DNA from: a virus
Lineage: Duplodnaviria; Caudoviricetes
Reading direction: 5' to 3' (one strand)
Virus record (IMG/VR): IMGVR_UViG_3300021400_001327
Coordinates: 43,315 to 107,314 of that record
Length of the DNA: 64,000 nt
The translations under genes were made by a program, and so were the position numbers. The notes below the pieces were generated by a model. It searched no databases. It worked only from the letters and a program-made list of their open reading frames with translations, and had not been told where the DNA came from. Shown in pieces: positions 32,440 through 36,931 of this stretch; the stretch's first letter is position 1; each line of letters opens with the position of its first letter.

Positions 32440-33333
32440 ATTATGACGATAACGATGATTGTGGATGGCGTGGAACATAATGTCAACCTGAGCGAAGAGC
32501 AGGTGCAGCAACTGCTGGATACAGCGGGACGTCAGCCATATGCCCGTGTCGGGTACGGCGAGACGTATTACTATCTCGATAATCTTGGCGACGTCAAAAC
32601 GACGGACGACATTGAATCAAGTGCAGACGACAGGTTGTATGATTTTGGCAATTACTGGGCGAACAAGAAAACATGCGAGGATGATGCCAGAGCGGACATC
32701 TTGCTCAGACAGCTCCGTAGGTTCGCTATGGAGAACGGCGGTTACTTCGACAAAGACACAGACGACCTGATGTTGTCATGGTGTTTGGAACCGGCGGACA
32801 AGCCATCATTGAAAGAGGTGCGCATCTATAAGCGATACACGAGTCGCGTCGGAATGGTGGGCTTCGCTTCATGGGATGCTGCGCGAGACGCTTTAACGCA
32901 GTTCCGCGACGAAATCATCTGGTATCTGTACACCTACCTGCCGAGCAAGGAGATGAAATAATGGCGCTGATCAAGTATTCATGTGAAGTTTGTCACCGGC
33001 TCTGGGATACAGAGGAGCAGGCGGACGCCTGTGAAGCGACGCACAAAGGAGCGACCGAAATTCTGGAATGCCGTTACAAAAAGAAAGCGCAGCCGGAACT
33101 GTATCCCTCCAGCCTGCTGATGAAAATGGCGGACGGAAAACAAATCGTCTACTACATGGGACGGGCAGAGAAGCAGCCCACTACACCGCTCAAATATGAG
33201 TCTGTCCCCTACCCCACTGACCCGACTGGCGGACAGTAAAGGAATAGTAAATCGGATTAAGCGCCGACGGCGAGCGGCTATCCGATGCGGATTAAGAACC
33301 GCCAGTGAGCGGGCATCCGCGTGAAAGGAATAT

Positions 33334-34042
33334 TTGAAGTTAGGGAGTTTGTTCTCCGGGTCCGGCGGCTTTGAGTTCGCCGGACTTTTTTGTGGCATCA
33401 CGCCAAGTTGGAATTCCGAGATTTTGGGCTTCCCTCGTTCTGTAACGGATCGCTGGTTTCCAGACACAAAGCAGTTAGGCGACGTGACGAAGATTAAAGG
33501 GGGTGATGTTGAAGCGGTTGACCTGATTACATTTGGGTCGCCGTGTTAGCCAGGACCTCTCTATCGCCGGTAACCGTGCCGGAATCCATGATGGAACCAG
33601 AAGCTCACTGTTCTTTGAAGCGATCAGAATCATAAAGGAGATGCGCGATGCCACAAACAACCGGTATCCAAGGTTTGCAGTCTGGGAAAACGTTAGCGGC
33701 GCCTTTAGCTCCCACAATGGAGCAGACTTCCAAGCCGTCCTCGAAGCGTTCTGTCAGGTCGCAGGAACCGACATTCATGTACCTTTCCCTGAAGTCAACA
33801 AAGGAAGGTGGGCAAAAGCCGGAACCATCGTGGGAGATGGTTTCTCGATTGCCTGGCGTCTCTACAACGCCGTCGGTTGGGGCGTTCCCCAGCGTCGAGA
33901 GAGAGTCTTCCTTATCGCAGATTTTGGAAGTGAACGTGCCGGAGAAATACTATTTGACAGCGCGTGCGAGTCTTGGGATACTTCGGCGAGCATGGAAACG
34001 TGGAAAGAATTTGCCGGAAGTGTTAAACAACGCACTTGTTGA
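33334..34042 (+). pseudogene. dcm: C5 cytosine DNA methyltransferase, catalytic part (motifs I-VIII), disrupted by a 4-nt insertion at PC|Q
   Basis: FSGSGG, GSPC-TAG-C-QDLS, WENV, PQRRERVF. Confidence 0.75.
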
Positions 34043-35018
34043 GTGCATAAAAATTAGTGGTGATTGCTTTGGGCAGAAAGAAATTAGAGACGCCGGAAAA
34101 ATATTGCGAGAATTGTGGGAAGAAGTTGGAGAGAAGACCTTTAAAGAATGGATACTTAGAGCCATTATTTCACTTCAACAAGAGAAAATACTGTTCAATA
34201 CAGTGTTGCAGTGCTATGCAATCGAGGGAAAAGCTCCTGTGCCCACCAAAGACAGCAAAGACGAGCAGACAGAGGGCGAGAAAGATTGTAGAGCAGGGAA
34301 CGTGTGTGATGTGCGGGGCGCAAACACGGACAGAAGTGCACCATATAGATCACAATCCTATGAACAATACGCCAGAAAATTTGATGAGATTGTGTTCCAA
34401 GTGTCATCACGCCCAGCACAAAAACGACCGACAGAAACCTTTATGTGTTGTTTGCGGGGAGCCGCAGAAGGGGCACCATTTATGCTCAAAACACTGGCAA
34501 GCATGGAGAAAGAGCTTAAAAAGAGGATGGGATACAGAATACACATTGATGATAAAACAATGTTTGATAGATGCGGGGCTGTGAGCGTCTGGGATGCCCG
34601 TGGGAATGGCGACGGAGAGACTTCTCCTACCATCACAGGCGACCACAACAACAGGATCACCGACTACACCGCCGTCATTGTGGAATCGAAACCGAGCACC
34701 CACTACTTCTCTATGCAGCGCTTCGATGAATTCAAGGAGAGCGATGCGGCGTCCACCCTCAAACAGCGGGACTACAAAGACGTGACAGATATCGTGGTCG
34801 AGGAACGAGAACCAATACAGGAACGCAAGTACATCGTCCGGCGGCTGACGCCCACGGAAAGCCTGAGTCTTAATGGTTTGCCGAAATGGTGGTGCGATGA
34901 TGTGAAAGGCCGTTCGGATACAGCGGTATATAAGCTGTCCGGAAACGCAATAGCGATTCCGTGTGCTGTAGATGTGTTGGAAAAAATCGAACGGGCTTAC
35001 AGGAGAGATTTGAGATGA
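33648..35018 (+). CDS. C5 methyltransferase C-terminal/beta-type chain in an alternative frame (start uncertain)
   Basis: SLSQILEVNVPEKYYL; RRLTPTE..LNGLP and YKLSGNAI (motifs IX and X). Confidence 0.7.
   Translation: MPQTTGIQGLQSGKTLAAPLAPTMEQTSKPSSKRSVRSQEPTFMYLSLKSTKEGGQKPEPSWEMVSRLPGVSTTPSVGAFPSVERESSLSQILEVNVPEKYYLTARASLGILRRAWKRGKNLPEVLNNALVECIKISGDCFGQKEIRDAGKILRELWEEVGEKTFKEWILRAIISLQQEKILFNTVLQCYAIEGKAPVPTKDSKDEQTEGEKDCRAGNVCDVRGANTDRSAPYRSQSYEQYARKFDEIVFQVSSRPAQKRPTETFMCCLRGAAEGAPFMLKTLASMEKELKKRMGYRIHIDDKTMFDRCGAVSVWDARGNGDGETSPTITGDHNNRITDYTAVIVESKPSTHYFSMQRFDEFKESDAASTLKQRDYKDVTDIVVEEREPIQERKYIVRRLTPTESLSLNGLPKWWCDDVKGRSDTAVYKLSGNAIAIPCAVDVLEKIERAYRRDLR
34057..34584 (+). CDS. 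HNH endonuclease overprinted within the methyltransferase ORF
   Basis: CENC, KYCSIQC, CVMC..EVHHIDHNPMNN.PENLMRLCSKCH. Confidence 0.85.
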   Translation: MVIALGRKKLETPEKYCENCGKKLERRPLKNGYLEPLFHFNKRKYCSIQCCSAMQSREKLLCPPKTAKTSRQRARKIVEQGTCVMCGAQTRTEVHHIDHNPMNNTPENLMRLCSKCHHAQHKNDRQKPLCVVCGEPQKGHHLCSKHWQAWRKSLKRGWDTEYTLMIKQCLIDAGL

Positions 35019-35659
35019 ACAATTACAATTCAGGAGTAATGGATTTATGGCATGCACTGAAAATGGTTTGGCAGGAGATGCCGACCTCCGCCGTTTGCGG
35101 GATGTTTGGTTGGGGTGAGTCATACGATTTTGATTTCGATGATGTCCTTTGTGAAGATCCGATGACCATGATAACAAAGGTCAAGGAATACGAACAGAGA
35201 AAAAACCCGACAAAGAAACAGGTCATCGCGGCGCTGAAGTGCCTCGGCAACCCAGAGTCGGACTCGTGGGATTATAAGAAATGCTTAGAAACAGGGTGTC
35301 CGTTCGCCAGTAATGAGGATGGATGCGCGGCGCCTATCACACAAAGCCTCTTCAAGTATTTTCCAGAGCTTTGTGATGACGGCGCTGATAAACCTGTCAA
35401 AGCCCGCCCAATAAAAAAGCATGAGTTGTCGTTGTTGAAGCCCGGAGATAAGGTCTGGTGGACACTGTGTGATTGTGAACAGAAGCCGGATTGTGAGACT
35501 ATCACCTATATCAACAAGAACATCATACGCTATGAGCCCGGTCATGGATTTGACGTCGTCGATAATTACGCAAAGGAGAATGGTTTTATTCTGTGGTATG
35601 ACGAGCCAACAGAGGAAGACATCGACGGTGTCGATTTGAAAGGATTGCGCGATGACTGA
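35015..35659 (+). CDS. Hypothetical protein
   Basis: ATG overlaps methyltransferase stop (MNNYNSG). Confidence 0.6.
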   Translation: MNNYNSGVMDLWHALKMVWQEMPTSAVCGMFGWGESYDFDFDDVLCEDPMTMITKVKEYEQRKNPTKKQVIAALKCLGNPESDSWDYKKCLETGCPFASNEDGCAAPITQSLFKYFPELCDDGADKPVKARPIKKHELSLLKPGDKVWWTLCDCEQKPDCETITYINKNIIRYEPGHGFDVVDNYAKENGFILWYDEPTEEDIDGVDLKGLRDD

Positions 35660-35957
35660 TAACGGGATGCCTGACAGGGAGAAGGTTATCAGGGCCGTTG
35701 AAACTTGTTTTGATAGCTGGATTGATAAGCACCGGAACATAGGTCTTGATTTGCATGAAGTCGAGCGGTTGAAACGAGAAGCGCTGGAGATGCTGAAAGA
35801 GCAGGAAGCTGTTGAACCAAAACTTGTCGATGTAAACACATGGACTTGTGGTGAATGTGGTGCGTTGATCGGTTGGGAGGAATTTGCACAGTCAGGATTG
35901 GAACTGGTCAAGTACAAGTTCTGCACGGAATGCGGAAGGGCGGTGAAATGGGGATGA
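35652..35957 (+). CDS. Zn-ribbon protein
   Basis: WTCGEC...KFCTECGRAVKW; paralogue of 36460-36780. Confidence 0.7.
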   Translation: MTDNGMPDREKVIRAVETCFDSWIDKHRNIGLDLHEVERLKREALEMLKEQEAVEPKLVDVNTWTCGECGALIGWEEFAQSGLELVKYKFCTECGRAVKWG

Positions 35958-36931
35958 CATATTCTTCGATTGAAAAAATCCGACCGAAAGCGAGTATCCA
36001 ATGGGACAATGGCAACGACGGGCGGGATGGGCGTTATTATATCGAATATCGCTGCCCCGTGTGCGGTCGAAGGATATTCTATTATGGGCGCGATAACGCA
36101 TGTGATCAGTGCGGAACATTTTACGATTGGGGAAAGCGTGAACCAGTCATCGAAATAACGAGGTGCGTGAAATGGGATGAGTGACCAATATAATACAGAC
36201 GGGATAATGGTTTTCCAAAAGGCAAGTCAAAGACCTGTAACAGATAACGCCTTTGAAAGCATTGAACGCGCAATAGCGTTTGACGTGAGAGACTGGTCTC
36301 AAGACCGGAGAAGTGCATGGATCTATGCCATCGTGTTCGGCTGGGAGTACGAGGACGCCTGGGATGAAGTGGCTAAGAAATTCGGCTGGGATGAAGAAGA
36401 CCGTAAAAGAGCACGCTCACTGCATGTGCAATGGGAAATGGCAAAGGCGGTGAAGTGGGATGCCTGACCGGGAAAGGGTCATTTACGATCTTGAACGATG
36501 TACGTGCCACGTTCCGGACGCTTGCCGGGATTGCTCAAAATACGCCAGCGGAACCGTGATGAAATGCATGGAAAGCCTGATGATGGACGCGTTGGAACTG
36601 CTGAAAGAGCAAGAACCAGTTAAACCAACAGTCAACGTTGATACTTGGATTTGTTCCGAATGCGGTCATACATTAGAAAGTCAAGAACTTATTGATGACA
36701 ATGAGAATCCTCAGGTGCTTATCCATGAGCAATATAATTATTGCCCGAACTGCGGAAAGGCGGTGAAGTGGGATGAGTGAATACACAGGAGGGCCGCTTG
36801 ACAGATTAGCCGATTTGTTCATGAGAGCACTGAGAACGGATGACCCTCAAACGAAAGCCAATTTAATCAATGAATGGAACGAAGAAATCAAGTTTATCAA
36901 TTCTGTATTAAAAGGATGGTGAAGTGTGATG
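35936..36931 (+). repeat. Five copies of junction motif AAGGCGGTGAAGTGGGATG
   Basis: Near 35936, 36161, 36443, 36756, 36911; each overlaps a gene end and the next ATG. Confidence 0.75.
36460..36780 (+). CDS. Zn-ribbon protein
   Basis: WICSEC...YCPNCGKAVKW. Confidence 0.7.
   Translation: MPDRERVIYDLERCTCHVPDACRDCSKYASGTVMKCMESLMMDALELLKEQEPVKPTVNVDTWICSECGHTLESQELIDDNENPQVLIHEQYNYCPNCGKAVKWDE

Follow-up and report, generated by a model that had tools for sequence, protein, structure and literature searches.

The HNH reading frame and its insertion site

The window (the whole 64,000-nt stretch of phage DNA that was analysed) carries on its plus strand an open reading frame at 34057..34584 (frame 1; GTG start, 175 aa, TGA stop at 34582-34584). 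It lies wholly within ORF 33648-35018 and in the +1 frame of that ORF, as (34057-33648) mod 3 = 1. The initial annotation had named it a zinc finger/HNH endonuclease, and this identification was borne out by profile matching, by invariant residues and by modelling. The architecture of the product is zinc finger, HNH core, zinc finger. It matches Pfam family PF01844 with 22.2 bits against a gathering cutoff of 21.4, and all residues that are invariant among 45 relatives are present (C79, C82, H91, H92, N104, C109, C112 and H113), in the conserved layout of two CxxC pairs around an HH...N...H core with N- and C-terminal zinc fingers, as expected of a beta-beta-alpha-metal core (His-Me finger endonucleases). 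AlphaFold2 modelled the product with a mean pLDDT of 91.7. Structural comparison of the model returned the GVE2 HNH enzyme (Z 6.2), EcoKMcrA (Z 5.4), the Gme HNH enzyme (Z 5.1) and I-HmuI (Z 4.8, rmsd 2.5 over 60 residues); these Z values are modest, and almost all of the top-ranking matches are HNH enzymes. The HNH profile matched no sequence of a solved structure at E≤0.01, and a Foldseek search of the PDB with the model gave no match at E≤0.001.

The translation start signals of the HNH gene lie at 34056..34071 (plus strand) and comprise the SD-like AGTGGTGA and a TTG at 34069, which is homologous to the ATG of relatives. This conserved start position is 10 codons upstream of KYC. An ATG is found within 25 codons upstream of KYC in 38/42 relatives, usually at the 10-codon position, and an SD-like motif precedes a start in 30/42; the start region of L008, another filled allele, reads GGTGGTGA. 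Because the start codon in the window is TTG with a weak SD, expression of its HNH protein may be low. The HNH frame is closed by a stop two codons upstream of GTG 34057, and in many relatives by a stop within about 10 codons of the start.

Alignment of the DNA with the HNH-free alleles L086, L087 and L088 delimited an insertion module at 34037..34587 (plus strand). The initial annotation had proposed that such alleles would define the ends of the insertion, and they did: the left junction is within 34037-34056 and the right junction is 3 nt past the HNH stop. Homology to the empty alleles picks up again at position 34588 with GTC TGG GAT (VWDARGNG). Nearly the whole insert is taken up by the HNH ORF, with about 30 nt left uncovered. 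The HNH-free alleles are P0003/L087, P0004/L088 and P0005/L086, and the window and L008 are filled. P0003/L087 and P0004/L088 are single-frame enzymes of 385 and 422 residues, respectively.

Sequence identities across the region form a mosaic. From 33334 to 33900 the closest sequence is the HNH-free L086 (100% and 99.4%), from 33901 to 34909 it is L008 (99.3-100%), and from 34910 to 35018 it is again L086 (91.7%), while the 3' end of L008 is of the L087 type. The window and L008 differ by 21 substitutions in the 606 nt upstream and by 2 in 947 nt across the middle block (Fisher p = 2e-7). The middle block, 33901..34909 on the plus strand, is a recently transferred cassette in which the module is flanked by 136 nt on its left and 322 nt on its right. 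By these identities a cassette of about 1 kb has moved between two backbones, which is the pattern expected of homing with co-conversion.

The two backbones also have different genes 3' of the methyltransferase (MTase) gene. In the L087-type backbone (loci L008, L087, L088 and L095) an RNA ligase gene (PF09414) follows directly. The window backbone has a different 3' neighbour, and the break is at 34910-34922, inside the end of the MTase gene.

The host methyltransferase gene

The gene that contains the module is a C5-methyltransferase gene in several pieces, all on the plus strand. Piece 1 (33334..33549, frame 1) runs from motif I (FSGSGG) to the catalytic FGSPC and ends at TAG 33547-33549; it corresponds to PF00145 profile positions 1-71 by Pfam and pairs with residues 6-76 of the intact relative L002. 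Piece 2 (33551..34042, frame 2) has QDLSIAG, ENV, QRRERVF and a linker, and ends at TGA 34040-34042. It corresponds to profile positions 72-131 and beyond, and tblastn with the L002 MTase aligned residues 78-229 of that protein to it. A post-motif-VIII segment (SLSQILE..EKYYL..GILRRA..RGKNLP..AL) is encoded at 33909..34040 in frame 0, which is +1 of piece 2; of the upstream MTase sequence, only these 44 codons share the frame of the insert. The C-terminal half (34588..35018, frame 0) comprises the TRD (WDARGNGDG..TITGDHNNRITDY, TLKQRDYKD), motif IX (RRLTPTE) and motif X (GNAIAIP). It matches profile positions 216-323 and is 82-90% identical in amino acid sequence to the HNH-free proteins P0002-P0004.

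ORF 33648-35018, 456 codons long, is only in part a methyltransferase: its initial 87 or so codons are an alternative-frame shadow of the frame-2 motifs, and genuine MTase sequence in frame 0 begins at about 33909. Motifs I, IV, VI, VIII, IX and X of PF00145 are all present at the locus, but they are encoded in three different frames, with a stop following PC, and do not form one polypeptide. The initial description of an uninterrupted MTase frame with motifs on both sides of the HNH gene applies to the TRD and motifs IX-X downstream and to the 44-codon segment upstream, but the catalytic motifs are in frames 1 and 2. The close relatives P0003 and P0004 have the full motif set in one frame. 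L008, which comes from an independent metagenome assembly, aligns with the window over 33204-34922 at 98.4% identity with zero gaps, so both frame changes are real and not assembly errors.

The frame change between pieces 1 and 2 is due to four extra bases, TAGC, at 33547..33550 (plus strand), between the Cys codon TGT and the CAG (Gln) of motif IV. They introduce a stop and a +1 frame change. They are present in the window, L008, L086 and L095/96 and absent from the intact alleles L087 and L088. The string TGT-TAGC-CAG (33544-33556 in the window) is invariant and was found in 17 IMG/VR contigs with an MTase gene, which represent at least five diverged lineages and together with the window, L008, L086 and L095/96 make 22 loci (the others are in L100-L120, L127, L135, L145, L167 and L177). 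Five Clostridia genomes carry the string as well, in prophage-like loci. Downstream of TAGC, most of the 22 loci have an ORF of 300-590 codons. Between the window and L095, which share 74% nucleotide identity in piece 1, omega is 0.26 upstream and 0.20 downstream of TAGC, with dS of 0.73 and 0.46 on the two sides. A genome-wide scan for the TAGC pattern gave 71 matches, about the chance expectation, of which only 5 were in a methyltransferase context, and a search for a tRNA that might read TAGC found zero tRNA genes in the whole 107-kb phage genome.

Judged by its conservation, TAGC looks like a maintained, functional feature and not like decay. It could be a recoding site, the boundary of a split enzyme or an on/off switch. 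We consider it possible, though rather doubtful, that the host gene is recoded, with TGT-TAGC-CAG as a programmed site (e.g. a +1 shift on UGU UAG C) that, in combination with the post-motif-VIII +1 change, would yield one MTase from three frames. If recoding were true, the stop-free frame of the HNH module would belong to a recoded MTase in phages of Clostridia. Independently of the module, an MTase under purifying selection with a conserved stop-plus-one-base in a catalytic motif is a separate puzzle.

Two further irregularities were noted among related genes. On the 5' side of TAGC in L100, L109, L112, L120, L105, L107 and L114, the GGSPC-terminated frame extends over no more than 27-29 codons, so that the motif I region of these genes must be encoded in a further frame or be separated off by a further insertion. 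In the IMG/VR MTase L003 an in-frame TGA (CTT TGA CTT, L003:3195-3215) is found within motif IX, which reads RRLTPL*LECERLQG; motif X follows in the same frame, and this is another short insertion that brings a stop into a catalytic motif.

The second frame change recurs among relatives. The selected post-motif-VIII frame is +1 of the catalytic ORF in 27 non-identical loci (33890-34042 in the window; L002-L004 and L009-L076, about 27 loci; also L086-L093), with the consensus SLSDILE...YFLS.KAC.GILRRAEKRGK.LP..AL. Over the 27 loci amino acid identity is 63.5% in the +1 frame vs 33.6% in the annotated frame, and nucleotide identity at codon positions 1, 2 and 3 of the +1 frame is 0.68, 0.71 and 0.43, the third being the most variable. 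Selection switches between the frames 7-10 codons past the Gln of motif VIII. Neither a conserved start codon nor a slippery site was found for the +1 segment. Two layouts occur. In most loci (layout A) the +1 frame soon ends, and it is the annotated frame that encodes the TRD and motifs IX-X. Layout B, seen in the window, L008, L089, L090/91 and L092/93, has a catalytic ORF that stops and a +1 frame that passes through the HNH module to the TRD and motifs IX-X.

A C5 methyltransferase with coding sequence in a second frame has a precedent in M.EcoHK31I, where the alpha gene contains, in a different frame, the coding sequence of the beta chain (PMC2836561). The host MTase likewise has a selected segment +1 of its catalytic ORF. 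Purifying selection was found on the +1 frame from just past motif VIII. The nested chain of M.EcoHK31I is small and carries motif IX; unlike it, the +1 frame described here, as read from the sequence, encodes the post-motif-VIII segment, and in this phage it additionally takes in the insert, the TRD and motifs IX-X.

The stop-free host frame across the HNH gene

Read in frame 0, the HNH DNA yields a stop-free read-through peptide at 34043..34587 (plus strand). Chance openness was assessed with 500 synonymous-codon permutations of the HNH gene. Frame 0 has 0 stops across the 528 nt of HNH, vs a mean of 7.4 after synonymous shuffling, and zero stops were obtained in 0/500 permutations. The absence of stops in the host frame reported initially is confirmed.

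Relatives were collected by a profile scan of IMG/VR, which gave 166 confirmed members; the best 80 of the 166 were analysed together with L001, L003 and the window (n=83). In 71/83 loci the HNH gene is +1 of a frame that is open across it, and the +2 frame is also open in only one of the 83. The initial annotation would have been contradicted by homologues that usually have stops in the MTase frame, and this is not what was found. The host ORF matches PF00145 in 64/71 cases, and 3/71 nested host ORFs are terminases with intein domains. With the three terminase hosts set aside, the remaining 68 nested loci have 0 host-frame stops vs a mean of 6.0 after permutation. The third frame of nested loci contains 5.4 stops vs 5.1 after permutation. 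Stop depletion, which the initial annotation had proposed to test across homologues, was thus seen in the host frame and was not seen in the third. Conversely, 12 free-standing HNH relatives have a mean of 12.2 stops in the equivalent frame. Since nested loci were defined by zero host-frame stops, the weight of the stop-avoidance evidence lies in the share of 71/83 and in the bimodal distribution.

Nuclease relatives also occur with terminase genes. L078, L081 and L082 are more distant relatives of the HNH core and are inside large terminase ORFs with intein splicing domains. Brucella phage records have an annotated HNH gene overlapping a terminase gene.

Amino acid conservation was then compared between frames using 326 pairs of non-redundant copies. 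Identity in the HNH frame is 41.8%. In the host frame it is 22.5%, vs 21.3 +/- 0.3% in a null of stop-free synonymous permutations of the same pairs, and the unused third frame shows a similar small excess (22.8% vs 22.0%). Because host-frame identity is close to the null, as in the control frame, the read-through peptide is constrained only to stay open. By this measure the nuclease frame is the sole frame of the module DNA under amino acid selection, a clean natural case of one-sided dual coding in which one frame is selected for sequence and the other only for openness.

The read-through peptide is poorly structured in prediction and common in databases. AlphaFold2 modelled the frame-0 product with a mean pLDDT of 44, with values of 23-71 within the insert, and the position of the loop relative to the enzyme could not be read from so poor a model. 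With a profile built from the read-through peptide, 2005 representative proteins were matched at E≤1e-3, 1121 of them at E≤1e-10, and a word-based search with the peptide alone matched only the near-identical P0001. The peptide is present in about 2000 protein clusters, where the HNH gene goes unseen because gene callers annotate the MTase only. The nested arrangement is also present in Staphylococcus phage CUB-EPI_14, which has an intact 601-residue MTase with a nested 160-codon HNH homologue (42% identity) in the +1 frame. In six nested loci the HNH frame is broken and the host frame is open, as would be expected late in a homing cycle.

Persistence of the nuclease inside the gene

Taken together, the segment 34037-34587 is probably a mobile, homing-type "hidden out-of-frame HNH" module, with its own start and a stop-free host frame that is read through. 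The HNH protein would be translated from its own internal SD and start, TTG 34069 here and ATG in most relatives. Through its choice among synonymous codons, the HNH gene would keep stops out of the host MTase frame, one base behind. Ribosomes on the MTase message would read through the insert, adding a poorly structured loop of about 180 residues that the enzyme presumably tolerates. The nuclease would cut empty alleles and spread by repair-mediated copying. In this phage the read-through frame joins the post-motif-VIII segment to the TRD and motifs IX-X and would not reach the catalytic N-terminal half.

The initial annotation proposed a selfish nuclease that spares its host gene by dual coding. 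For the family this reading holds: the sequences point to selfish HNH genes tolerated by read-through of the host frame, with neither an intron nor an intein. For this phage the sparing of the host gene is less certain, because two upstream frame changes would be needed and the host gene is not one intact frame.

Other explanations were weighed against the hidden module. It is improbable that the host MTase of this phage is a dead gene whose open frame 0 was merely inherited with the module and is useless here. The catalytic half is indeed cut by TAG directly after the catalytic Cys and lies in frames other than that of the C-terminal half. However, TAGC and the frame layout are kept in diverged lineages with both sides under purifying selection, long ORFs follow TAGC as described above, and of the nine changes that separate the window from L008 in piece 1, seven are synonymous. 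Furthermore, the layout of a catalytic half followed by a +1 frame recurs with an intact PCQ in L089, L090 and L092. The occurrence of 64/83 analysed relatives in C5-methyltransferase genes could reflect, besides target preference, a functional partnership. The HNH protein might then be a nested restriction-like or addiction nuclease blocked by methylation, or a packaging-type HNH, since other relatives adjoin or sit inside terminase genes. We think this unlikely, as presence varies among near-identical alleles and a cassette has moved between backbones. The host MTases belong to widely differing subfamilies, the HNH gene has decayed in six copies, and the insertion point varies among hosts: it follows the post-motif-VIII segment in some and precedes motif IX or motif X in others. 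In addition, database records label the nearest free-standing relatives (T5 hegA, F-TflIV) as HNH or homing endonucleases.

Phage group I introns commonly carry HNH genes, and the module has a defined insertion site in a conserved gene, as would a self-splicing intron or intein that had escaped recognition and was removed after transcription or translation. In agreement with the initial annotation, which had seen no group I or intein features, no Rfam family matched at E≤1 within 33000-35500, and Pfam found only PF00145 in the frame-0 product, with no Hint or intein domain. A stop-free host frame would be needless if the segment were spliced, yet it is present in 68/68 nested loci, and the HNH ORF leaves no space for a ribozyme core. 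Splicing of RNA or protein would be excluded on these two grounds only, the absence of recognisable signatures and the logic of stop avoidance, and we rate it as very unlikely. Production of the HNH protein as a fusion to the upstream MTase part by +1 ribosomal frameshifting would account for an offset that is always +1 (71/83 loci). We give it next to no weight, given the conserved SD and ATG at a fixed position and the in-frame stops shortly before the start, in the window and in many relatives.

The hidden out-of-frame module has close parallels in mycobacteriophages. Gosselin et al. 2023 (PMC9957025) and Arsenault, Gosselin and Gogarten 2025 (Genes, PMC11855218) described the ShiLan domain, in gp65 of Mycobacterium phage ShiLan, and a second case, the insertion in Pacc40 gp60. 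In both cases an out-of-frame HNH gene is concealed in a stop-free insertion within a mycobacteriophage methylase, with a patchy distribution and no intron or intein features (PMC11855218). The concept of a hidden out-of-frame HNH is therefore already known, having first been published in 2025, and the initial proposal of a third strategy was anticipated by that work. As in ShiLan and Pacc40, the present module is an insertion in a phage methylase gene that is present or absent among relatives, the host frame is stop-free across it with no intron or intein signature, and the insert is occupied by a zinc finger-HNH-zinc finger ORF in a different frame, whose stop falls among the final bases of the insert. 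As its authors report for ShiLan, the read-through peptide is predicted with low confidence. Unlike in ShiLan, compared here by its published description, the offset is +1 rather than a "third frame", the HNH gene has a conserved SD-led ATG start where leaderless initiation was proposed, the hosts are C5 methyltransferases of phages of Firmicutes and other phages, and the host gene is itself in several frames. A tblastn search with two members of this HNH family against 50,697 phage records gave no mycobacteriophage match at E≤1e-5 or at E≤0.01. What the window adds is the three-frame variant of the host gene and a clear pair of filled and empty alleles, which makes homing directly testable.

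The same nuclease fold is found in other genetic settings. T5 hegA (F-TflIV), found by tblastn with the L004 copy (E = 3e-6), is a free-standing gene, and I-HmuI is encoded in an intron; those genes lie between genes or in a self-splicing intron, whereas the present one is overprinted on a translated host frame. Homing endonucleases are usually viewed as persisting inside genes by means of introns or inteins. Other ways for a host gene to accommodate such a gene, likewise with no splicing involved, are mobE in nrdA of Aeromonas phage Aeh1, a gene-splitting insertion of a homing endonuclease, and T4 gene 60, which uses bypassing. Unlike mobE, which splits the host protein, and gene 60, where ribosomes skip the insert, the present insert would be translated in frame with its host. 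Overprinting combined simply with the avoidance of stops would be a third route beside introns and inteins, and one used at large scale.

Downstream of the host gene, at 35652-36780 of the window, are four consecutive small overlapping genes (101, 109, 96 and 106 aa). Three of the products have CxxC...CxxC zinc-ribbon motifs and all four have similar tails (VKWG, VKWDE, VKWDA and VKWDE). These shared features suggest a family of small zinc-ribbon proteins encoded in tandem.
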